A DNA stretch of 64,000 nucleotides, taken from IMG/VR virus record IMGVR_UViG_3300044712_001292, positions 39,000 to 102,999 of that record. One strand, 5' to 3'. This DNA comes from a virus. The notes beneath the pieces are model-generated. The model made no database searches, was not told where the DNA came from, and saw only the letters and a list, made by a program, of their open reading frames with translations. This document shows positions 31,648 to 64,000 of this stretch, in pieces; within the stretch, counting starts at the first letter, position 1, and each line of letters opens with the position of its first letter. A program made the translations under genes and the position numbers.

Positions 31648-33159
31648 ACGTCGTTTAAGGCCCTGTTCGATCAAGCCGAAGATGCCAAGCGCGCGGGACA
31701 ACACGACCGCGCGCTTGGCATTTACACGTATATTCAGAGCATTTCCGGAAGGTCTGACGCGAACGTCCATGCCGCGATTCAGCTCGGGTCCCTGTGGAAG
31801 GACCTGGGCTGCATGGACACAGCTTTCAAGGTAACGTACGAGGCGGCGCAGTCCCTTGATGCGTTGGGTAAGTACAGCGCTTCCGGCGGTATCTACACGT
31901 CGTTGGCATGTGCGGTCCTCTACGCGCCGGGCGTCACGCTCGAGAGCTATAGCAAGCTGGTACGGCGCGTGACCATGTCGTTGGATATGTCGATGCCGAA
32001 GGTTTCGCATCTGAACCATGATATGACGACACAGCGCCGACTGCGTGTAGGCATCCTCAGCCCAGATATCTGTCTCCACTCATTAGCATATCTGGTGGCG
32101 CAGCCACTGATGCGTTTTACCCGTGTTACGCCGCATGAATTGTACTTATACCACTTACGACCATCCATCGATTCCGTTACGAAGCAGGTAGGGCAGGCGG
32201 CAACGAAGCTCGTCCACGTACACGGCATGACCGACGACGCCATCGTCGACGCCATTACGGCTGACCACATCGACGTTCTCATCGATCTGTCCGGTTACAC
32301 CGCTGAGAGTCGTCTGTCCGTCTTTTGCCGACGCCCGGCCCCGGTACAGATGGGGTGGATCAGCGGAATGATGACGCCGACCGGTCTTCCGTCGCTGCCG
32401 TATTTTATGACGGATTCGTATATGCTGCCCCCGCAGCTACCTACTGGTCTGTGCATACCGATCACCGCAAAGACGGCTCTCACGTATCATACGCTGCGCA
32501 GCCAGGAGCTCGACATCGGACAACTTCCGCGAGATAAGACCGGTGTTATAAACTTCGCGAGCTTCAACAACCCGTGCAAGATCAATAACGATGTCCTGCA
32601 GGCGTGGGCCAGGATCATGCACGGGGTGCCGGGCAGCAGACTGCACCTGAAAACGTACAGTCCCATGGATTCGGCACGTATCGCCGAGTTCATGGCTAAC
32701 GCCAAGGTCGATCCGGGACGACTCGTACTGATGCCCCAGCTGCCGTCATCGACAGACGTGCAGAAGTATTACAGCGAGCGCGTCGATATCTTCCTCGACG
32801 CGTGGCCTTGCAGTGGCTGCCTGACGACAGCGGAAGCTTTATGGATGGGCGTACCCGTCGTTTCGTACTACACTGACGTATTCTGTTCGCGGCAGTCACA
32901 TTCCATCCTCAACACTATCGGTGTTACCGATCTATCACACCCGACGGTCGACGGCTACGTACAAGCAGCCGTGAATTTGGCCCGAGACGTCGGACGCTTA
33001 CGCGAGCTGAGGTCCACCCTGCGCTCACGCATGTCTCAGAGCCCGCTGTGCGACTACGACAGCATGGCTCGTGAAATAGGAAACGCCGTCGTAACTGCGT
33101 GGCAGCACGCCGCTGCCGCACGCAAAGACTCCCTTGACGCCCTGAGAAAGGCAGCCTAG
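31645..33159 (+). CDS. SPINDLY/OGT-family (GT41) protein O-glycosyltransferase with short TPR-like N-terminus
   Basis: LRVGILSPD..HS, IDVLIDLSGYT, RPAPVQ, FASFNNPCKIN, DIFLD.WP.SG..TTAEALWMGVPVV. Confidence 0.92.
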   Translation: MTSFKALFDQAEDAKRAGQHDRALGIYTYIQSISGRSDANVHAAIQLGSLWKDLGCMDTAFKVTYEAAQSLDALGKYSASGGIYTSLACAVLYAPGVTLESYSKLVRRVTMSLDMSMPKVSHLNHDMTTQRRLRVGILSPDICLHSLAYLVAQPLMRFTRVTPHELYLYHLRPSIDSVTKQVGQAATKLVHVHGMTDDAIVDAITADHIDVLIDLSGYTAESRLSVFCRRPAPVQMGWISGMMTPTGLPSLPYFMTDSYMLPPQLPTGLCIPITAKTALTYHTLRSQELDIGQLPRDKTGVINFASFNNPCKINNDVLQAWARIMHGVPGSRLHLKTYSPMDSARIAEFMANAKVDPGRLVLMPQLPSSTDVQKYYSERVDIFLDAWPCSGCLTTAEALWMGVPVVSYYTDVFCSRQSHSILNTIGVTDLSHPTVDGYVQAAVNLARDVGRLRELRSTLRSRMSQSPLCDYDSMAREIGNAVVTAWQHAAAARKDSLDALRKAA

Positions 33160-33162
33160 TAT
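33134..33162 (+). promoter_or_regulatory. Putative promoter TTGACG-17-TAGTAT, 5 nt before ATG 33168
   Basis: Near-consensus sigma70-like; fixed-spacing family. Confidence 0.6.
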
Positions 33163-33167
33163 CCGCC

Positions 33168-33857
33168 ATGATCTTCAACGACGTTGACAAAACGAAGCCC
33201 TATACGGTACTACTCGTATCGACACCCGTACGACTCGCGTGCCTGAGCTTCAGCGGCCTCGCCCGTGGTGTGTACTACATCCAGGGTGACTTTCGAAGCA
33301 AGATTTCGAAGCCGCATGATAAGCGCCTCATACAAGTCGGGGCTGTAGCCCTGCGCTACGTCGTCGGTTCCGAGGAGTTCTCCATGGGCAAGCTGGTGAG
33401 CTCGGAAGACCTCCCGGACCGGACGAGCGCACTTCCCGCTTTCAGCGATATTCCCGAACAGAAAGAGGGATCCAACGCGACAGGTATCACCGTGGCTGGC
33501 CCCACGCTGCCCCCAGTGCGCGTGGTGGAGTACAGCGCCCCGGCCCCTCTCGAGTCCATCCCTGTCGTTCAGGAAGTGGCTGCACCCGTTGTACGCGTGG
33601 CACCCGAACCTCCCGTTACCCCCGAGCTCCCGCAGGCGGTGGTTGGCGCTCTTCCGAAACTGTCCGACGATGAGCCTATCGTTGTGCTGGATGACAAGCC
33701 AAAGAAGCGCCGTGGTCGTAAGCCCAAGTCCGCCCAATCCGTTGCCTCAGCGGCAGTAGAGGCTAAGCTCGATGGGCATGATCAAGACAGCGCAACTGCT
33801 GACGAGGGCGTTCCAGCAGCGCCTAGTGAAGACCGCGTCGATCACCAAGACAGCTAA
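33168..33857 (+). CDS. Hypothetical protein with disordered C-terminus (KKRRGRKPK)
   Basis: 229 aa ORF. Confidence 0.65.
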   Translation: MIFNDVDKTKPYTVLLVSTPVRLACLSFSGLARGVYYIQGDFRSKISKPHDKRLIQVGAVALRYVVGSEEFSMGKLVSSEDLPDRTSALPAFSDIPEQKEGSNATGITVAGPTLPPVRVVEYSAPAPLESIPVVQEVAAPVVRVAPEPPVTPELPQAVVGALPKLSDDEPIVVLDDKPKKRRGRKPKSAQSVASAAVEAKLDGHDQDSATADEGVPAAPSEDRVDHQDS

Positions 33858-33918
33858 GCGCTGGCTCGACGACCAGACCCTGGTCAAGCTGTGCGCTCGT
33901 ACCAGGAAGAGGAAGTAA
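33826..33918 (+). CDS. Putative 30-aa basic micropeptide MKTASITKTAKRWLDDQTLVKLCARTRKRK (below the ORF-track cutoff)
   Basis: GTG..TAA fills the intergenic gap, ends 3 nt before the next ATG and has two KTA motifs. Confidence 0.45.
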   Translation: MKTASITKTAKRWLDDQTLVKLCARTRKRK

Positions 33919-33921
33919 GCC

Positions 33922-34950
33922 ATGAGCGTTCCTACTCGTATCACCCTGGAGCGCTCTGCGAGTCAGGTGTTCCTGGCCTTTGACCAGGATATTACACGTG
34001 TGAGCGGCATCCTGCCGTGGGACAATGGGTTCACGCTGACCGTGAACGCTGCGCCCACGGCTATCACTGTCGTCACAAAAGTCGCGAACGGCATCTGGTT
34101 TCAGACGGCGTCGCCCTTCCTCGATTCAGACACCGTTCAACTGACGTATGCCGGTAGCAACCTCGTCGACGCAGCTACATCCACCGATCCCGTAGCTGCG
34201 TTTGCTGCCACGACCGCGCCTCCCTTCTGGCTGAACGGCAACCTGGTTCGCTCGGCCCTCGTGCCGCTGGCAGCACCGGATACGATCGTCATCACGCTGC
34301 GCGACCCCGTCGCATCGCTGACCAACAACCTCAAGAATGGCCTGGCAGTCACCATCAACGCCGTGGCTGTATCGCTGACGTCAGCTGTGGTGACAGGCAC
34401 GGGCCGAACAGTTACCATCGATTTGACGAATGACGTGTCGTATAACGACACTGTTGTCGTGACGTATACGTCGGGTTCTGGCGACTGGTACGCTGTCGAA
34501 GCGAATACGGCGGTCGCCTCGTTCACTGTCACGGCAGACAACGCCAGCGTGGTCGGTACCCCTGAGTCTGAGTATCCGCTCAGCACCGTCATCGCAGAAC
34601 CGCTGGCTATCACCGATAATGTGGTGACGGCGAAGCTCACGGTGTCGCTGAATAGCGTCGATCGCGAGATCGCATCCCGGTATGCTCCGACGTTCGATCA
34701 GGGCGGCTACTACGGCCTCCCTACCGTCAATCCGCCGACGGGCTTCTTCGTCCCGAGCAAGCAGCTGCCTATCCGCGACGGTCAGGTCTACGCTTACGCG
34801 TTCTCCATCCCCGGCAACCCTCAGTGGGCGTCGCTCGCTGCGGCCGAGTGGCTGTCGACCATGGTCGCCCGCATCGGCATCTCCCTGAACACTGCTAGGG
34901 CAACCGACCAGAGCATTACACTCGGCAACCGCACGATCACACAGGTGTAA
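33922..34950 (+). CDS. Ser/Thr-rich virion protein with two SwmB-like beta repeats
   Basis: DTVQLTY..VAAF and DTVVVTY..VASF repeats. Confidence 0.65.
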   Translation: MSVPTRITLERSASQVFLAFDQDITRVSGILPWDNGFTLTVNAAPTAITVVTKVANGIWFQTASPFLDSDTVQLTYAGSNLVDAATSTDPVAAFAATTAPPFWLNGNLVRSALVPLAAPDTIVITLRDPVASLTNNLKNGLAVTINAVAVSLTSAVVTGTGRTVTIDLTNDVSYNDTVVVTYTSGSGDWYAVEANTAVASFTVTADNASVVGTPESEYPLSTVIAEPLAITDNVVTAKLTVSLNSVDREIASRYAPTFDQGGYYGLPTVNPPTGFFVPSKQLPIRDGQVYAYAFSIPGNPQWASLAAAEWLSTMVARIGISLNTARATDQSITLGNRTITQV

Positions 34951-34953
34951 GCC

Positions 34954-36237
34954 ATGGAACACCCGAAGCTGGGGATCATGTACGTAAAGGTGGCGGCAGA
35001 GTTACCTTTCAATTGGTTGCGGCCTTTCGATTCTGCCCTCAACTCCGCCACGTTACAGTGGCTGACGCCCTATATCGCCACTAAGTCATCTGAGGGTGAG
35101 TCCCCAAGAGCCGCGCCGACACAGCAAGCTCCGACGCCCGCGCCAGCCCCTCGGCAGGCACAGCCGGCACCGACTCCTCCGGCGGCACCGGCTTCGCAGG
35201 CTGCGCCTACACCACCAGCCGCTCCGGCTGGTCCAGTGGCCCCGCCGCAGGCTCCCGCAGAAAGCCCAGTGCAGACGCTGCTGAACGGCGGTCGTACGGT
35301 GGACGGTACGTTCGTCCCGTTGACACTGCAGGAACGTACACGGCTGTGGAACAGCCTTGGACCGCCGGCTACTCCAGGCAAGCGTCCCGGCCTGTCTCCG
35401 GCACAGCGCGATATACTGCGTGCACGCGAGCAGGAGCGCCTCGACACAGATAGGATGATCGCTACAGAGGTAGCTCGTCAGAAGATCAACCGTTCGATCG
35501 CGAAGTCACGCGGTGAAGCCTATACCGGCCGGGATGACCAGTTCGGCATCTTTAATGACACTGACCCGAGAACCGGTAACCGTAAATTCGAGATAGACCC
35601 GAAAACGGGTAGGCCCGTGTCTGTTTACGGTGGGCTTTTACCACAGGCACCGTTGACGACCCCACAGCAGGTGCAGAGCTACGCGCTGAAGCGACTTGCC
35701 CCTCAGACAGCTACCCCAACCGCCGGTGCCGACGCTCGCGCTGTTGCCGGCATGATTCAGAAGGACTTCGAACAGAAGCAAGACGAGCGCCGCGCCCGGC
35801 TGTTGGCAAATTCGCGACGGTCGCCCTACGGCCCTGGTGCAGCACAGTGGACGCCGGGTGGCACGAACCTGACGAGGACGCAGGAAGCGAACGCCATAAA
35901 CCGCTACCTCGATAGCGAGCGCCGCCGCACAGACGGATGGGATCCGGACGAGGCTTGGCTCCAGTCGTCAGACGCACGGGAGCTAGGCAATCGGGCCCGT
36001 GTCGTGCGGCAGGGTGATCCGTCGATGACTGAGTATGACTCCATCCGTCAGGTCCAGGGTGCGCCAGCCCGCTTCGACGCGTATAAGGAGGAAGCCGCTC
36101 GTCGTATGGCTGGTCCTGCCGAATATCCCGCCCAGCCGCCTGTAGCAACTCAGCAGCTGCCTGCTGCGAAGCCTATGGCACCCACCCCGTTGGCGAAGCC
36201 GCCGCAGATCTCTCGTGCTGGATTCCGTCGTCAGTGA
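34954..36237 (+). CDS. Pro-rich hypothetical virion protein
   Basis: 427 aa; N-terminal LGIMYVKVAAE leader. Confidence 0.7.
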   Translation: MEHPKLGIMYVKVAAELPFNWLRPFDSALNSATLQWLTPYIATKSSEGESPRAAPTQQAPTPAPAPRQAQPAPTPPAAPASQAAPTPPAAPAGPVAPPQAPAESPVQTLLNGGRTVDGTFVPLTLQERTRLWNSLGPPATPGKRPGLSPAQRDILRAREQERLDTDRMIATEVARQKINRSIAKSRGEAYTGRDDQFGIFNDTDPRTGNRKFEIDPKTGRPVSVYGGLLPQAPLTTPQQVQSYALKRLAPQTATPTAGADARAVAGMIQKDFEQKQDERRARLLANSRRSPYGPGAAQWTPGGTNLTRTQEANAINRYLDSERRRTDGWDPDEAWLQSSDARELGNRARVVRQGDPSMTEYDSIRQVQGAPARFDAYKEEAARRMAGPAEYPAQPPVATQQLPAAKPMAPTPLAKPPQISRAGFRRQ

Positions 36238-36267
36238 CGAGAGTATGCATGGCACGTAAGGCCATCT

Positions 36268-37131
36268 ATGATCACCCCTATCGAAGTAACTCCGTCATCC
36301 ATAAGTAACCCGGTTAAGGTTACAAGGACTGCGGCTACCTCGCGCAAGCAGTTGGTCTTCAAACTCCTGGATGCAGAGGGTCGCCCTATCGATCTGCGGG
36401 AAGAAGTTCCGAACCCGCCGGCACGGAAGCCGACCTTCGGCACAGAACCGCCTGCGCAGGGGTCGAACGTCACCGTCCGGCTGCGTGCTCGCGATGGCGA
36501 ACTTTACGGACCAGTGCAGTTCGATGTCACCGGGCAGCTGCTTGACGAGCGTGGTTTCGTCGAGTTCCTGTTGACTGAGACCGAGACAAGCAAACCGGGT
36601 GTCTATCAGGCTGAGATCGGCCGATTCGCAGGTTCATGGCTCGTTGATACCTGGCCCGTCCTCGTCGTCGTCGAACCGTCCGTCTTTCAGACACTGAGCG
36701 GCAACGGTCCTATCACGATCCCGGAAATCCGGCTGGCCCTTCTGGACAATAACAACGGAGCTGACGGTGCCCCCTTCAACAACCTGCTGACAGACGTCGA
36801 ATTCTCTGACGTCGAGATCGCAAACGCGATTCGTCGTGTTGTCGACATGTGGAACGAGACGCCGCCCAACGTGATGTACTTCAGTACAAACGACTTCCCT
36901 TACCGCTACTGGTGGATTATGGGGACGTCGGCCATCTTGCTGCGGGCTGGGGCTGCCCGGTACCGCCGTAACAGGCTGGCGTACTCGGCAGGCGGCGTGT
37001 CTATAGACGACCAGTCGAAGGCTGAGGAATACGAGCAGGTCGGCGAGGCCCGTATGCGCGAGTTCAAGGAGTGGATGATGTCGGAGAAGGTCCGCATCAA
37101 TATGGGCTACTGCTGGGGCAACGGGATCTGA
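36268..37131 (+). CDS. Probable head-tail adaptor/neck protein
   Basis: N-terminal beta domain plus helical C-terminal domain (RNRLAYSAGGVSIDD); position between head and tail genes. Confidence 0.6.
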   Translation: MITPIEVTPSSISNPVKVTRTAATSRKQLVFKLLDAEGRPIDLREEVPNPPARKPTFGTEPPAQGSNVTVRLRARDGELYGPVQFDVTGQLLDERGFVEFLLTETETSKPGVYQAEIGRFAGSWLVDTWPVLVVVEPSVFQTLSGNGPITIPEIRLALLDNNNGADGAPFNNLLTDVEFSDVEIANAIRRVVDMWNETPPNVMYFSTNDFPYRYWWIMGTSAILLRAGAARYRRNRLAYSAGGVSIDDQSKAEEYEQVGEARMREFKEWMMSEKVRINMGYCWGNGI

Positions 37132-37136
37132 CCTTC

Positions 37137-37946
37137 ATGCCCGAACGCGTATTCCTTCGCATCAATGTCGACACGCACTTCAGCGTGCTGACGACTCAGC
37201 GGGTGACCGTTTCCTGGGCGATGGAGCCGTCGTTCGTAGAGCCCGGCCCGTGGACGTTTACGCTGCAGCGCGGGTACGCGCCGACGGAAGACGCGTGGGA
37301 GGACATCGCAACCACCGTAGACCAGCCCTGGCTCTACGACAACAGGCCGACAGTCAATGTCGTCGGTACGTCGGTCTACTACCGGATCAAGCTGGTCGAC
37401 GGCAACGGGGTCGTCTACTATTCGCAGGTACAGACGACGTCAGCGTACTGGACGAGGTACGACTGGTCGCTGGCGAAAGAGATCATCCGCAAGGAGACGC
37501 TGCTGCTTCGGAAGAAGACGGGCGTACGCGGCGTCCTGCTGAAGCGCCGTTACTTCGGCGAGCGCTGCCCCGTATGCACGAACCCGACGACTGGGCAAGT
37601 GGAGTCCAGCACCTGCACGACATGCTATGGCACGGGGATCGTCGGCGGCTATTACCCGCCGTTTGAGTACTGGGTCACAATGAATGCTACGCAACGCATG
37701 CGTAAGCTAACGGCGGAGCAGGGCGTCATCGCCTCCACCATCGAAAGCGTCCGTGCGCTCGCGTACCCCGTCCCCGAAGGGAACGATGTGTGGGTGAACG
37801 GTGAGACAAATCAGCGGTATTATGTGACACCGGATATTAAGGTTATCGCCCGTCACCGTGGCATCAGCCTTGTCCTCGATCTGGTGCTGAACGAGGTACC
37901 GACCGACCACGTCATCTACCAGTTCCCGACGCTATGCGCCCCATAA
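37137..37946 (+). CDS. Probable neck/head-closure protein with Zn finger
   Basis: CPVC...CTTCYGTGIVGGY; position. Confidence 0.6.
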   Translation: MPERVFLRINVDTHFSVLTTQRVTVSWAMEPSFVEPGPWTFTLQRGYAPTEDAWEDIATTVDQPWLYDNRPTVNVVGTSVYYRIKLVDGNGVVYYSQVQTTSAYWTRYDWSLAKEIIRKETLLLRKKTGVRGVLLKRRYFGERCPVCTNPTTGQVESSTCTTCYGTGIVGGYYPPFEYWVTMNATQRMRKLTAEQGVIASTIESVRALAYPVPEGNDVWVNGETNQRYYVTPDIKVIARHRGISLVLDLVLNEVPTDHVIYQFPTLCAP

Positions 37947-38043
37947 TTCGGAAGCCGAAGGTGCAGCCCGCACAGGCGCCTCCGAGCGAGGCTTCACGGG
38001 TGGTATTAGCCAAGCCTGCGCCTAAGCTGGTACCTAAGCTACC

Positions 38044-38856
38044 ATGCCGCTGACGAACGACGGAAATGAGCGCGACGTCAGGCTGCGTCCTGACTCGGCC
38101 CCTATTCCGGGTGCCGACGAGAACCTGAATGGTCCTATACCGCCGGGTGCTCCGTGCGACACGGTTGGCACGCAGACAGACCTGCCGGCGAGCGGATACA
38201 CCGTTCAGACGCCATCTGCAACGTTCGAGCAGCAGTACGACTGGTCCGCCCTGGCTGACGTGTGCCCGCGCGGATTCGACATGAGGACGGTAGAGACGGT
38301 CCTCTTCAAGATCGTTGTTTCGCACTTCTCAAACCCCGACCGCATCATCAACCCAGACCTCAAGTCGCTGATCTACACGCCGAACCCGACCACCACCAAG
38401 CTGCGTGTTGCGCTCAATACCGCTTTTGATCTGCCGACGTCGACGAAGCTACCTGCAGTCATCCTGAAGCGCGGACAACAGGAGTTCGAGCGTATTGGCA
38501 TCAACGACAGCAGTGAACAGCGCGTACTTGAGCCCGAGATCATACCGTTCGTCAGGCGCGTGAAGGGTACGCATCTGCTGATGTCGGTATCTTCGGTGCC
38601 CGGGGAGACCGAGAACCTGGCGAACGAGCTCGTCGACGCCTTTACATGCCTATCGCCCGTCCTTCGTTCCGAGCTGCCCTTCGCCGACTTTGAAGTCGCC
38701 GGAGTTACCGAGCTTCAGATCTCGGATGAGCTCGGTAATAGATCAGTCGTAGCCGTGCAACTCGTTTACAAATATGAGCTTGGGTGGACTCTGCGCAAGT
38801 CTACGCCCCTTGCAAGCCGACTTGCGCTTCGTACACTCTTTAACGTCCAGAGCTAG
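38044..38856 (+). CDS. Probable tail terminator/completion protein
   Basis: LPAVILKRG motif; immediately upstream of the sheath. Confidence 0.55.
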   Translation: MPLTNDGNERDVRLRPDSAPIPGADENLNGPIPPGAPCDTVGTQTDLPASGYTVQTPSATFEQQYDWSALADVCPRGFDMRTVETVLFKIVVSHFSNPDRIINPDLKSLIYTPNPTTTKLRVALNTAFDLPTSTKLPAVILKRGQQEFERIGINDSSEQRVLEPEIIPFVRRVKGTHLLMSVSSVPGETENLANELVDAFTCLSPVLRSELPFADFEVAGVTELQISDELGNRSVVAVQLVYKYELGWTLRKSTPLASRLALRTLFNVQS

Positions 38857-38864
38857 AGGTAGGC

Positions 38865-40862
38865 ATGACCGAGCCCGTTACTACAGTACTGCCGACGACG
38901 CTCTTCCGGCGTTTCCGCGAAGTGCCGGCCACACTGTCGTCGCAAAACGGCGTCCTCCTCGCCGGTATGGCCTACGTCGAGCACGGATACAAGCGTGCAG
39001 CCGGTACGGGCGGCATCGGTCAGTACGTCGGCTCGACGCTGACAGCTGCGTGGCCGAATCTAGGTGTGAACGAAACGGTTCGTACATCGACGGCTGTCGC
39101 CACCATCGTTTCTGCCATCGTCCGTTACTATACGGAGACCGGCGCTCCCGGTGCTACCAAGGGCACACAGTACGGTACGGCGCCGAATAAGATCACACAT
39201 AACGGTACCGCGACCATCTGGACCGGAGCCGGGTTCACTCCGTCGCTGAACGTGCCTCTGGCTGTCGGTGACTATGTACGGCTGGACAATAACGGGGTGA
39301 CAGTTCTTCACACCCGTGTGACTGGTTTCGAGGCTATCGGCGGTCAGCTGAAGGTTCTTGTTCTCGCGGACAACATCCCGGCCGCGCTGACCGGCGTTGG
39401 CGTATACTTCAACGTCAGTGTCGGTCAGGTAGCGACTCTGGATCTGCTGAACAGCCAGCTGACCACGACTTCCAGCCAGGTCACGATTCCGGCCGCGCTG
39501 ACGGCCGCAACGTCGCGCACGGGCAGTGCCTACCCGGTTATAGGCGCCACGCTGCCGGATGGCACCGTCCTCGGCCAGGCCTATGTCGACTACTTCGCGA
39601 CACTGACGGGCGCCTTCACAGGCAACGTGGTGAAGTTGAAGACCGCCACCGACGTTTATGCGACGTTCCCGGATACCGGCGTAGGTTCGGGACTCGGCTT
39701 CGCCGCGCTCAACGCCCTATCGCCGACGGTTACGGGGCTTCAGCCTGCGCCGGTTGGCGTCATAGCTCCGACGAGCGATACGCTGGGTGGCTATCAGGCA
39801 CTCATCGACGTCATCCGTTTCCGGTCTGACTACAGCGCGATTGCCGTACTCAGCGAGGACTCGAGCGTCATAGCTGCGTTCGCTGATCTGCTGAACTCTC
39901 GCGCATCCAACTATCAGCCCGCTCAGCTGTTCGTCGGCATGTCGTTCACGAAGGACGAGGAAATCGGCTCGTCGACAGCCGTAACGATCAACGACTCGCA
40001 GACCCCAGGTGAGCAACGCACGTTCCTGGTTACGGCCGGAGCTCCGTTCGCAACCGCGGTAAGCGGTGACACCATCCGTCACTACACGTCTCCGACGGTT
40101 TATGTGACGTATGTTATCCAGTCCGTCATCAGCACCCAGACGGCTATCGTCACGTCTGCGGTGCCCGGCGGCCCCCTGGCTGCCCAGACCATCGAAGTCT
40201 GGCACCACCTGACGACGGCTGAGCAGGTCGCTTCGGCGATCGGCGAAGCACAGTCGTTTGCGAACGACTCGGTGAACCTGATCTACCCCGACACCTTCAC
40301 CTACGGCGGTGTATCGGTTCCGCCGTACATGATGGCTGCTTACGCTGCTGCGCTGCAGTCATGGTCCGCCCCGCAGCAGATGCTGTCGTACGTGGTACCG
40401 TCCTCCCCCTGGAGCGCACCGACGCAGGCGGCTGTGTCGGGCTATCAGGATGAGCTGGCGTCCGGCGGTCTGTTCGTGTTCGACGTATCGACGTCCGGTG
40501 TCCTCTACGTCCGCTTCCCGCGTACGACGGACCCGTCGTCTGATCAGACGTCTCAGTCTGTCGTTGTGGCGACGGAGCAGTTCGTTACGCGGTATATCGC
40601 CAGCCAGCTGACTCCGCTGCTGGGTCTGTACCGGACGTCGACGGAACTGTACGCTCAGCTGCGTACGAAGGCCTCCGCAGCACTGGCGTCGTTGCGGAAC
40701 GCGTCCGTCAGCGGTCTCGGTTCCATCATCATCTCTGGCACTGTCGGCGACATAGGCCAGAGCACGACAAACGCCAACACTGTCGTCGTTCCTATTACCG
40801 TATCGATTGCCGGCGTCGCTGAAGACATCCTCCAGCTCGATATCACGGTCACGCTAGGGTAA
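38865..40862 (+). CDS. Tail sheath protein
   Basis: 665 aa; sheath-like C-terminus (ELASGG..VRFPRTTD..VVVPITVSI..LQLDITV); followed by a tube-sized gene. Confidence 0.75.
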   Translation: MTEPVTTVLPTTLFRRFREVPATLSSQNGVLLAGMAYVEHGYKRAAGTGGIGQYVGSTLTAAWPNLGVNETVRTSTAVATIVSAIVRYYTETGAPGATKGTQYGTAPNKITHNGTATIWTGAGFTPSLNVPLAVGDYVRLDNNGVTVLHTRVTGFEAIGGQLKVLVLADNIPAALTGVGVYFNVSVGQVATLDLLNSQLTTTSSQVTIPAALTAATSRTGSAYPVIGATLPDGTVLGQAYVDYFATLTGAFTGNVVKLKTATDVYATFPDTGVGSGLGFAALNALSPTVTGLQPAPVGVIAPTSDTLGGYQALIDVIRFRSDYSAIAVLSEDSSVIAAFADLLNSRASNYQPAQLFVGMSFTKDEEIGSSTAVTINDSQTPGEQRTFLVTAGAPFATAVSGDTIRHYTSPTVYVTYVIQSVISTQTAIVTSAVPGGPLAAQTIEVWHHLTTAEQVASAIGEAQSFANDSVNLIYPDTFTYGGVSVPPYMMAAYAAALQSWSAPQQMLSYVVPSSPWSAPTQAAVSGYQDELASGGLFVFDVSTSGVLYVRFPRTTDPSSDQTSQSVVVATEQFVTRYIASQLTPLLGLYRTSTELYAQLRTKASAALASLRNASVSGLGSIIISGTVGDIGQSTTNANTVVVPITVSIAGVAEDILQLDITVTLG

Positions 40863-61768: not shown

Positions 61769-61931
61769 GTCCGTCGGGGGACCTTAAACCGTGTTAGGCC
61801 CGACGCGTCCGCCATCTGGCGGGGTCACATGACTGACTGTGGGGTGTACCCGCGGGTCGGTGAGGCGCCGGTACCGTAACACCGGGTTTCGCAGGCTCTC
61901 GGAACCTGCATGTTCTCGAAAGGAACATACC

Positions 61932-62957
61932 ATGCTGCAGATCGTCGGAATCAATACGGCCCGCGCTTGCGCCAAGGAGGGCAGCCTCCTAATCGGTACC
62001 CACTCGGGGCCGTTCCACGCCGACGAGGCCGGGGCCATCGGCCTCGTCGAAATGTACCGGGAGGCGTTCGCCCTCGGCGCCGTCGCCGCGGTGCGTACCC
62101 GCAATCCCGCGGAGCTCGCCTCCATCAAGGAGGCCGGTGGCGTCCTGGTGGACGTCGGCGGCGAGTATGTCCGCCCCAAGGGACCGGATCTCCGCGGTCT
62201 CCTGGCGGACCACCACCAGAAGGGTGGGGCGTGCCCGCCGCGCCCCAATGGGGTCCCCTACTCCAGCTTCGGGCTGGTGTGGCGGGAGATCGGCCCCGCC
62301 ATCTGCCGCCACACCATGGCCCAGCTTGGGGTCCCCGAGCTCGACGAGGCGGTCGTCGTCGATACGGTGGACGAGGGGCTCGTAAGCGCCATCGACGCCA
62401 CGGACAATGGAGCGGTCGATACGGTTGCGACCGTGAAGTCGACGGGGCGCCCCATGGCCCACTGGGGTGTCAGCCTGGTGGTGCACCAGATGAACCCGCC
62501 GGCGATCCCGGGCCTGGAGCAGAACTTTGACGAGGCCTTCATGAAGGCCGTCAAGTTCATGCAGACCTGCGTGGCAGCGGCGGTGGTCTCGGCCATCGCT
62601 GAGGAGGCCGCGAAGGCCACTGTCCGCAAGGCCATCTCCATCTCCACGGGACCGGTCCTCCAGCTCGACACCTATGTCGACTGGCAGGACACCGTGGCGC
62701 GTGAAACGACCGACGTGCTGTACGTGATCTTCCGGAACCCCGAGGGGACCTGGATGGTCCAGCAGGTGCCCAAGGCCCTGGGATCATTCGAGGGCCGCAA
62801 GCCCTTGCCGGCCGCGTGGGCCGGGCTGCGCGACACGGCGCTGCAGGCCGTCACCGGCGTGCAGGACGCGGTGTTCTGCCACAACGGCAGGTTCATCGCC
62901 GGGGCCAAGAGCCGTGAGGGTGCCCTGCGCCTCGCCAGGCTCGCCGTGGAGGCGTAA
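61932..62957 (+). CDS. myg1: MYG1-family (UPF0160, DHH-like) exonuclease
   Basis: THSGPFHADE, RTR, DVGGEY, DHHQ, SSFGLVW, IDATDNG, PLPAAWAGLRD, FCHNGRFI; SD before ATG 61932. Confidence 0.93.
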   Translation: MLQIVGINTARACAKEGSLLIGTHSGPFHADEAGAIGLVEMYREAFALGAVAAVRTRNPAELASIKEAGGVLVDVGGEYVRPKGPDLRGLLADHHQKGGACPPRPNGVPYSSFGLVWREIGPAICRHTMAQLGVPELDEAVVVDTVDEGLVSAIDATDNGAVDTVATVKSTGRPMAHWGVSLVVHQMNPPAIPGLEQNFDEAFMKAVKFMQTCVAAAVVSAIAEEAAKATVRKAISISTGPVLQLDTYVDWQDTVARETTDVLYVIFRNPEGTWMVQQVPKALGSFEGRKPLPAAWAGLRDTALQAVTGVQDAVFCHNGRFIAGAKSREGALRLARLAVEA

Positions 62958-62992: not shown

Positions 62993-63426
62993 ACCAGGAA
63001 AGCCAGGGTGCGACACACCCTGGTTGCCCACCACGGGAAGGTCCAGCTTCGCGAGCTGGCTGCATAACCTGCAGATCATAGCGCATAGGGCGTCAGCTCC
63101 CCGGTCACAGCTGACAAGGACTGTTATGAAGGCGGGAAACCTGCACCGGGGTTCTCAACCCCCGGTGCCGCCGTCAGGTCATACCTGGCGGCAGTTAGCA
63201 CCCCGTCTCTGGCGCCTTGAGCGCCAGTAATGGGGTGCGAAGAAACCAGGGTGGCAACGGCCCTGGTTTCTACACCAATACGTTGCACTTTTCACCTCCC
63301 CTACCAGATAGGTTGGGCCGGTGTAACAATCGTGAATCACGCGCCTTCGGGTTGCGTGGTCACACTGTTACACTGGCTCAGCGTATCTGGTAGGGTCGGT
63401 GTGTTGTGGGTTCGGCCGTTTTTTTT
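62963..63426 (+). ncRNA. Candidate ~460-nt structured ncRNA ending in a U8 tract
   Basis: Consecutive stems at 63001-25, 63043-59, 63092-115, 63143-68, 63170-92, 63198-238, 63241-71 and 63299-395, many with G-U pairs on the + strand. Confidence 0.55.
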
Positions 63427-63436
63427 ACCTATGAAC

Positions 63437-63524
63437 GCGGAATGCGCCTAGCAGCCGACTCATAATCGGTCCTCGTTAAACGCTGGGTCGGTCGAGAGAG
63501 GTTCGATTCCTCCATTCCGCACCA
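63437..63524 (+). tRNA. Atypical tRNA, anticodon CAT (Ile2/Met type), lacking a D arm and with a long variable region
   Basis: Acceptor GCGGAAT(G)/(C)ATTCCGC-A-CCA; anticodon arm GCCGA-CTCATAA-TCGGT; T arm GAGG-TTCGATT-CCTC. Confidence 0.75.
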
Positions 63525-63536
63525 CCAAGGACAACC

Positions 63537-64000
63537 ATGACAACCTACATCCAGCACCTGCTCATCCTGCTGACCGAGGCGCTCGCTATCCTCGGCAGCA
63601 AGAACAAGGCCTACGGCCTGTTCAGCAAGCTCATAGAGTATATCACCTCGGAGGTGACGGTGCTCGAGAACCGCCTCGACGCCCGGACGCAAGAGGTCGA
63701 AAACCTGGAGCGACGGCTGCGTGAGCAGCAGGAGACCATCCGCGACCTCGAGCGGCGGTATGCCGTGGCCATGGAAGAACATAAGCGACTGGCTACGTGT
63801 AACAGAGATTTAACCGACCCCATGGTAGAGATGCACGTGAGCTGCCATTCAAACGGCATCTCACGTATCTTCGAGGGTCAGTTCATCGACGCCATCAAGG
63901 TACTCCGGTCGATGTCGGAGCTTGGCCTGGCTGAGGCAAAGGGGTGCGTGTCCCAGCTCGCGTCGTACACCCCGAATCTCGGCGGTCCCGAGAAGGAAGC
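63537..64000 (+). CDS. Coiled-coil protein with ribosomal L7/L12 C-terminal-domain motif, 3'-truncated by the window (absent from the ORF track)
   Basis: SD AAGGA; open frame MTTYIQHLL...FIDAIKVLRSMSELGLAEAKGCV. Confidence 0.75.
   Translation, partial: MTTYIQHLLILLTEALAILGSKNKAYGLFSKLIEYITSEVTVLENRLDARTQEVENLERRLREQQETIRDLERRYAVAMEEHKRLATCNRDLTDPMVEMHVSCHSNGISRIFEGQFIDAIKVLRSMSELGLAEAKGCVSQLASYTPNLGGPEKE

Follow-up and report, generated by a model that had tools for sequence, protein, structure and literature searches.

We analysed a 64,000-nucleotide (nt) stretch of viral DNA, called the window below, which covers positions 39,000 to 102,999 of the IMG/VR record IMGVR_UViG_3300044712_001292. 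The record is linear, 102,999 bp long, an estimated 53% complete and about 60% G+C, and the window is its last 64 kb. Close to the end of the window, after a MYG1-type exonuclease gene and a stem-rich stretch and just before a further open reading frame (ORF), lies a tRNA-like gene with a CAU anticodon, the sole such element in the 103-kb record (Table 1). Several canonical parts are kept, namely the acceptor stem, a 7-nt anticodon loop with U33 and a purine at position 37, a T loop of the form TTCRANY, and a discriminator base followed by CCA, with acceptor and T stems split 8/4 and not 7/5. No D hairpin is present, and only a short connector separates the acceptor stem from the anticodon stem. 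Six connector bases are complementary to six in the variable-arm loop (helix a), and the stem of that arm (helix b) closes around the second strand of helix a. Helices a and b cross, so the core is, as predicted from covariation among relatives, a pseudoknot that rebuilds a 6-bp D-stem from one strand before the anticodon arm and one in the variable-arm loop. No helix of this gene contains a mismatch. Judged by comparison with its relatives, the element is a conserved, structurally constrained gene and not a decayed tRNA. It is, on the same grounds, a new structural variant: the CAU member of a pseudoknotted tRNA design with a rewired D-arm that is common to many phages. We consider it rather likely that the element is a working tRNA at all.

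ARAGORN called no tRNA at the element when run on the window, and no Rfam family, including tRNA (RF00005), matched it at gathering score. The best sub-threshold Rfam match was tRNA-Sec (RF01852), which scored 25.6 bits where gathering requires 47. A canonical cloverleaf tRNA is rejected on these negative calls together with the 9-nt spacer that holds no D hairpin. In the minimum free energy (MFE) fold the connector does pair with GCUGGG of the variable loop, but with a z-score of just -1.5 a single-sequence fold settles nothing. The extension of this pairing that the MFE fold offers at the start of the connector, with C53 and G54, is possible in this copy only and is not kept in relatives.

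Relatives of the element and covariation of its helices

Pattern scans for a CAU loop with a T loop at long range found the same architecture elsewhere. An 85-87-nt CAU gene occurs in several rumen-type jumbo phages and metagenome copies (L024, L122, L128, L129 and others) and in the 186-kb provirus L211. These genes have an 8-bp acceptor, a 9-nt connector (UACCUUGGG), a 4-bp T stem and the variable region G-CCG-UUAAAAU-CCAGGG-CGGUG-CGG-A. A search of phage loci with a covariance model made solely from the sequence of this gene gave 35 relatives at E <= 0.001. This model found tandem arginine versions, UCU and UCG, on an 83-kb phage contig (L224: 7005-7095 and 7150-7236, both on the minus strand) and, once UAU loops had been scanned for, many UAU versions. 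The 8/4 subtype comprises 25 distinct sequences on phage contigs, with the anticodons CAU, UAU, UCU, UCG and GUA, and UAU is the commonest anticodon of this rewired family. The GUA (Tyr) member, L316:6286-6374 (-), has a non-canonical T loop (UGGAGCGUUACCA) and aligns to the 8/4 model.

All eight acceptor pairs are changed on both sides among these 25 sequences, with 98.5% of cells paired. The eighth pair is GC in 16, UG in three, CG in two, UA in two and something else in two; it covaries, which supports the 8/4 split. Helix a is 98.6% paired on the model-fitted alignment, with five of its six pairs changed on both sides and six pair types in one column pair. As that alignment had been fitted to helix a, the count was repeated with a model that lacks helix a, and 77.9% of cells were still paired, with four of six pairs changed on both sides. 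The corresponding values for helix b are 90.4% and four of four. Four of the five anticodon-stem pairs covary, and the four T-stem pairs are paired in 100% of relatives. When the partners were slid by 1-3 columns, 44-56% of cells were paired, against 97-98% for the actual structure.

The helix a strands are CCUAGC/GCUGGG in this gene and CCUUGG/CCAGGG in the rumen phages and L211. In L224 they are UCCGAC/GUUGGA and UCCGAU/AUUGGA, the two arginine genes differing by a compensated pair. The UAU genes have CCCGGC/GCCGGG, CCAUUC/GAGUGG, CCUUCC/GGGAGG, CCAAC/GUUGG and others. Helix b, CUCG/CGAG here, is mostly 3-4 bp long in relatives (CCG/CGG, CUG/CAG, GGC/GCC, AGC/GCU, GAC/GUC, UCCG/CGGA, UCUGCA/UGCAGA, CCCU/AGGG). 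Directly after helix a follows a GG that is invariant in 22 of 22 distinct aligned sequences of the 8/4 family. All family members have an A-rich segment at the place of the joiner between helix b and helix a, which may make groove contacts.

The original prediction, made from the letters of this stretch, described a D-armless tRNA(CAU) with 9-10 nt between acceptor and anticodon stems and a variable region of about 27 nt holding a CTCG/CGAG stem. It further proposed an acceptor extended to 8 bp over a 4-bp T stem, a variable-loop GCTGGGT able to pair with the sequence that replaces the D arm, and a gene end in CCACCA. All of these details are confirmed. The spacing read from the sequence is 9 nt; the variable region and its stem are both present and the stem covaries; the eighth acceptor pair covaries as described; GCTGGG and CCTAGC are complementary and covary; and CCACCA is present, beginning after discriminator A. 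'D-armless' is apt in that there is no D hairpin, and misleading in that a pseudoknot restores the D-stem in trans. The prediction had named ARAGORN and covariation among homologues as checks, and relatives with a normal D arm as the sign of local decay or misassembly. ARAGORN called no gene here, both extra helices covary in the 25 relatives, and those relatives share the rewired layout, so that its phrase 'remodelled tRNA' fits the comparative evidence.

Table 1. The tRNA-like gene, its parts and its surroundings, in window coordinates. The numbers of U52, C53 and G54 count from 63437, residue n being window position 63436+n; other residue numbers follow the usual tRNA scheme.
Feature	Position	Strand	Remarks
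Pistol ribozyme-like element	61772-61829	+	below gathering score
MYG1/UPF0160 gene	61929-62957	+	DHH-type exonuclease, PF03690
Stem-rich stretch	62993-63426	+	about 430 nt
Whole tRNA-like gene	63437-63524	+	88 nt including encoded CCA; sequence read directly
Acceptor 5' strand GCGGAATG	63437-63444	+	eight Watson-Crick pairs with CATTCCGC
Connector CGCCTAGCA	63445-63453	+	9 nt; all that separates the 8-bp acceptor from the anticodon stem; no hairpin
Connector start CG	63445-63446	+	possible pairs with C53 and G54 over a U52 bulge in the MFE fold
Helix a 5' strand CCTAGC	63447-63452	+	pairs with 63482-63487; continues into the anticodon stem via A63453
Anticodon arm GCCGA/CTCATAA/TCGGT	63454-63470	+	CAT at 63461-63463; U33, A37, A38; stem pairs G.U, C-G, C-G, G-C, A-U (G27.U43; C29-G41)
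Variable region	63471-63497	+	27 nt; contains the helix b stem; loop engaged in helix a
Helix b 5' strand CTCG (variable-arm stem)	63472-63475	+	pairs with 63493-63496
A-rich joiner TTAAAC	63476-63481	+	joins helix b 5' strand to helix a 3' strand
Helix a 3' strand GCTGGG	63482-63487	+	inside the variable-arm loop; complementary to CCTAGC
D-loop-like TCGGT	63488-63492	+	contains GG
Helix b 3' strand CGAG	63493-63496	+	partner of CTCG
T arm GAGG/TTCGATT/CCTC	63498-63512	+	4-bp stem, canonical loop; potential fifth pair, A63497 with C63513, is a mismatch
Acceptor 3' strand CATTCCGC	63513-63520	+	pairs with GCGGAATG
A-CCA-CCA	63521-63527	+	discriminator A (A73), encoded CCA, second CCA
Ribosome-binding site AAGGA of next ORF	63527-63531		overlapped by the second CCA
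ATG of next ORF	63537		nine bases on

The rewired layout extends beyond the 8/4 subtype. A descriptor limited to the acceptor, T arm, anticodon arm and spacer lengths returned 37 ARAGORN-negative genes of a wider class, with the anticodons CAU, GAU, UAU, UCU, UCG, ACG and GUA, and it had no match on reversed or on complement-only versions of the roughly 2 Mb of phage loci. A shorter 7/5 rewired class of about 80 nt (L005:8422-8501 (+), L185, L215, L174, L011, L054 and others) carries the anticodons CAU, UAU, GAU and UCU. Its connector UAUCGGC pairs with the CCG of a variable region of the form xGAAA-CCG-UAAUUGGU, in which UAAUUGGU is a canonical-looking D-loop sequence. Compensatory changes are found in L185 (CGC with GCG) and L215 (CUG with CAG), and also in L174 and L011. 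A plain ACCG/YGGT hairpin within the variable region was rejected for this class, as it is broken in L185 and L215, where the connector pairing is compensated. Other searches added no members: a 2-kb region gave no blastn match among deposited phages, the exact T-arm/acceptor pattern was absent from IMG/VR, related-locus searches with the MYG1 protein and with the downstream ORF found no relatives, and a scan of genome contigs found no family member. An anticodon-free pattern (TTAAA..CGGT..RAGGTTCGA) returned only known copies and chance matches in coding sequence.

Proposed fold, decoding and amino-acid identity

We predict that the 8-bp acceptor stacks on the 4-bp T stem to form a 12-bp branch that would be read by EF-Tu. 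Helix a, made of six connector bases and six variable-loop bases, would stand in for the D-stem, with helix b closed around the loop that holds one of its strands. The connector continues unbroken into the 5' strand of the anticodon stem and so would take the place of the D-stem 3' strand (22-25, 26), leaving the variable-loop GCTGGG in the place of the 5' strand (10-13). The invariant GG would be the counterpart of G18-G19 and, by analogy with canonical tRNA structure, probably docks on psi55/C56 of the T loop to give the L shape. Compared with a cloverleaf, the block formed by the D-stem 5' strand and the D loop would thus be moved behind the D-stem 3' strand, the anticodon arm and the start of the variable region. 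Known tRNA structures place residues 8-9 near 21-22, residue 45 near 10, and residue 48 near 15 and 21; given these proximities the new joints would be short and an L shape is plausible.

The RNA would be excised like the other tRNAs of the phage, host TilS would convert C34 to lysidine, isoleucyl-tRNA synthetase (IleRS) would charge it, and the charged RNA would read phage AUA codons on the ribosome. The reading we favour, an AUA-reading tRNA-Ile2 with a rewired, pseudoknotted 8/4 fold that matures via host TilS, is tentative and comes close to an even chance. The broader proposal is that RNase P, EF-Tu, the ribosome, TilS and IleRS all accept a tRNA with a pseudoknot core and half of its D-arm behind the anticodon arm, that phages have spread this design over several amino-acid identities, and that the CAU version reads AUA after lysidine formation. 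We regard this as possible, with rather more doubt than belief.

The CAU anticodon in a CUCAUAA loop, A37, A38 and A73 are all features of tRNA-Ile2, but elongator tRNA-Met shares the anticodon and the three adenosines, so they do not discriminate. A model built from this gene scores UAU tRNAs at 59 bits and the other CAU copies at 50 bits. When the anticodon was masked, the gene was 66% identical to UAU members and 55% identical to the rumen CAU copies; in the acceptor region it shares 82% identity with the commonest UAU type (GCGGGAUG...CAUCCCGU-ACCA). The rumen CAU genes likewise have their closest relatives outside their own group among UAU genes, in this case ones without encoded CCA (L243, L315). 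A tree separates CAU and UAU rows from arginine rows with support of 89/90. Since UAU and lysidine-modified CAU both read AUA, kinship with UAU genes favours a tRNA of the Ile2 type.

Codon use is consistent with this assignment. In the long ORFs of this phage AUA makes up 6.1 per 1000 codons, or 13.6% of isoleucine codons, which is more than UUA, AAA or CAA, each of which is served by a tRNA of the phage. The complete 243-kb phage G001, which has a CAU homologue, uses AUA at 12.3 per 1000. Its 33 canonical tRNAs lie in one cluster, with no UAU tRNA and two canonical CAU tRNAs (one of them initiator-like), and the rewired CAU gene lies inside that cluster. Many bacteria seldom use the codons read by UAU, UCU and UCG, three of the four other anticodons in the 8/4 subtype, and such readers are typical of the tRNA sets of phages.

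Several observations weigh against a rewired tRNA-Ile2. The element stands alone, 64 kb from the tRNA cluster of its phage, and the covariance models behind the alignments used here derive from its own sequence. In the wider class the duplex energy of connector and variable region is -4.75 kcal/mol, as against -4.72 kcal/mol with reversed connectors; comparison with reversed or shuffled connectors does not discriminate, so it is positional covariation, and not complementarity, that carries the case for the pairing. A single origin of the CAU genes is not rejected by the approximately unbiased (AU) test (p-AU 0.26), and repeated switching between UAU and CAU is therefore not supported. MetRS relies mainly on the CAU anticodon. 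No TilS (PF01171) match was found in this fragment, an estimated 53% of the genome, or in four related records, so that host TilS would be needed. TilS determinants depend on the species, being 3:70/4:69 in Burkholderia cenocepacia and 4:69/5:68 in Escherichia coli, together with the anticodon stem (PMC11947777). The element has G3:C70, but also G4:C69 where C4:G69 is reported for B. cenocepacia (PMC11947777). Finally, allo-tRNA(UAU) genes were inactive as serine amber suppressors, and on that account Mukai et al. suspected non-translational roles (PMC5389517). The suppressor test altered the anticodon, which IleRS needs, and would thus probably miss an isoleucine tRNA.

With TilS determinants that are half matched and vary between species, methionine charging stays a serious alternative, although on balance we think it unlikely. 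The RNA would then have the same rewired fold with C34 unmodified, would be charged by MetRS, and would act as an extra elongator tRNA-Met reading AUG. The CAU anticodon with A73 fits this, as does the paired G1-C72, which elongators need. AUG makes up 18.2 per 1000 codons, and the 27-tRNA cluster of the phage holds no tRNA-Met; but the cluster also lacks tRNAs for Ile, Phe, Tyr, His and Trp, and because of this the missing Met is not specific. TilS requires species-specific elements of the acceptor and anticodon stems that may be absent or displaced here (PMC11947777). On the other side, the nearest relatives carry UAU (Ile) and are not canonical Met tRNAs, and in the related phage G001 two canonical CAU tRNAs are present with no other AUA reader. 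An initiator tRNA-fMet was rejected. Initiators are marked by a mismatch at 1x72 and by an anticodon stem with three G-C pairs in succession at its base, and in this gene G1-C72 is paired and the stem pairs are G.U, C-G, C-G, G-C and A-U. Two CAU tRNAs of rumen phages, L024:4473-4557 (-) and L134:6899-6984 (-), do have initiator hallmarks (an unpaired position 1 and GGG/CCC in the anticodon stem) but a long variable arm, at 85-86 nt in total.

A conserved tRNA-shaped RNA could also serve outside translation, for example as a sponge or decoy that occupies a modification enzyme or a nuclease with which the host attacks tRNAs, as a processing or punctuation signal for the flanking transcript, or as the partner of a phage protein (compare YrlA/Y RNAs and Ro60). 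The original prediction had itself suggested a decoy for anticodon nucleases or TilS. The gene is solitary and directly follows the MYG1-type exonuclease gene and some 430 nt of stem-rich non-coding sequence, which is compatible with such a role, and its 3' trailer contains the ribosome-binding site of the next gene. The 8/4 allo-tRNA(UAU) group has been suspected of non-translational function and of a link to toxin-antitoxin systems or mobile elements (PMC5389517); the suppressor result, as argued above, would not bear on isoleucine tRNAs. The features needed for decoding and charging are nevertheless kept (7-nt loop, U33, purine 37, 12-bp branch, free acceptor ends, A73, and CCA according to local convention), the anticodons UAU, UCU and UCG are mostly readers of rare codons, and members of the family are placed inside tRNA operons. 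TROVE (PF05731) has no match in the 103-kb fragment (53% of the genome), and with it no Ro60 gene. We judge a non-translational role rather unlikely. Far less probable is a tRNA pseudogene, the product of decay or misassembly, in which the D arm was lost locally; the comparative evidence brings this reading close to refuted. Standard finders do reject the element, which lies 470 bp from the contig end, yet unrelated phages carry its layout in 25 distinct sequences that show compensatory changes, and its own helices are intact. Independent freshwater contigs cover the stretch, with 6 differences and one gap over 63016-64000 compared with 41 of 437 nt at the end of the MYG1 gene.

Comparison with known tRNA variants

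The element shares an 8-bp acceptor, a 4-bp T stem and a long variable arm with (8/4) allo-tRNAs, including phage 8/4 tRNA-Ser/His (Mukai et al. 2017, PMC5389517; PMC7609411). Further points in common are the 6-bp D-stem or its equivalent, UAU as the commonest anticodon, an origin in soil and metagenomes, and escape from standard finders. Unlike the element, those allo-tRNAs are described with a tRNA-Sec-like D stem-loop, which has a long stem and a tetraloop. The allo-tRNA(UAU) genes, more numerous than any other allo-tRNA group, come from soil metagenomes and were reported to have 'slightly different' cloverleaves and possible five-stem junctions (PMC5389517). The element is set apart from them on their published description, and the families may overlap. 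A Ser-accepting allo-tRNA was rejected, as the element has A73, which is not what serine identity requires, and its variable arm is tied into the pseudoknot.

Compared with bacterial tRNA-Ile2, the favoured identity, the element has the same CUCAUAA loop with CAU, A37, A38, A73, G27.U43 and C29-G41, besides its kinship with AUA-reading UAU tRNAs. It differs in its non-cloverleaf core and 8/4 branch; C4:G69 is unmatched, and the D-stem determinants of TilS and IleRS have no direct counterpart (PMC11947777). Animal mitochondrial D-armless tRNAs, such as Ascaris mt-tRNA-Ser (PMC7609411), are similar in having a short connector in place of a D hairpin. They are shrunken, with an unpaired replacement loop, often degenerate T loops and adapted factors (PMC7609411). 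The element is longer than a normal tRNA, its T loop is canonical, its connector is paired to the variable loop and its setting is bacterial. A mitochondrial-type D-armless tRNA was accordingly rejected on the covarying connector pairing and the length of 88 nt. With tRNA-Sec the element shares an extended acceptor stem, a short T stem and a long variable arm; this candidate was rejected because the anticodon is CAU and not UCA, the Rfam score lies below gathering, and the 6-bp D hairpin is missing. YrlA-type Y RNAs with a tRNA-like module (RF02553) are a further case of phage or bacterial RNA with rearranged tRNA parts. YrlA ends in a Ro-binding stem and has neither an anticodon arm nor an aminoacylatable end, whereas the ends of the element lie at an acceptor with CCA and its anticodon arm is intact.

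To our knowledge all bacterial and phage tRNAs are taken to be cloverleaves, an assumption shared by gene finders, Rfam and tRNA-based analyses of phage codon usage. No description of a D-stem formed with the variable-arm loop was found in the literature searched. If these genes are working tRNAs, the L shape can be reached via a different strand topology, and phage tRNA repertoires have been systematically under-counted, notably for readers of AUA and AGA. TilS, IleRS and RNase P would then have to tolerate the rewired core, which offers a direct test of what they recognise, and the fold could be a scaffold for orthogonal tRNAs. If the genes are not used in translation, they would constitute a widespread and strongly constrained class of phage tRNA mimics.

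The phage and the gene neighbourhood

ARAGORN called 27 tRNA genes at positions 32,243-38,441 of the record, just upstream of the window. The first call of this cluster (record 32243-32320), perhaps one more odd tRNA, was given an 'anticodon' of two bases. Of the 27 cluster tRNAs, 23 have an encoded CCA, as does the element; in the rumen phages both the cluster tRNAs and the rewired copy lack it. Encoded CCA in the rewired gene follows the local tRNA convention. In the rumen jumbo phages the CAU homologue sits within clusters of at least 30 tRNAs, on the same strand, between tRNA-Cys and tRNA-Ser, and other family members with tRNAs nearby are always on the strand of those tRNAs. The UAU relatives closest to this gene (L241, L327, L267, L251 and similar) come from AT-rich phage contigs of 31-37% G+C, as against 60% here, and no other tRNA was called around them in loci of 2.7-14 kb.

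The product of the upstream gene matches MYG1/UPF0160 (E 9e-60), and its closest homologues, 71-77% identical, lie on short metagenome contigs. MYG1, which we take to be an RNA 3'-5' exonuclease, here adjoins a tRNA gene that ends in CCACCA. The stem-rich stretch between them has no convincing ORF and no Rfam match; it consists of back-to-back hairpins, with a T8 run ending 10 nt before the tRNA gene. No sigma-70 promoter-like site was found upstream of the element. This part of the window is present in DNA runs from freshwater and from rhizosphere, the latter probably being the source sample. Directly upstream of the MYG1 gene we identified the Pistol ribozyme-like element, which scores 32.8 bits against a gathering score of 34.5, with the conserved core letters aligned.

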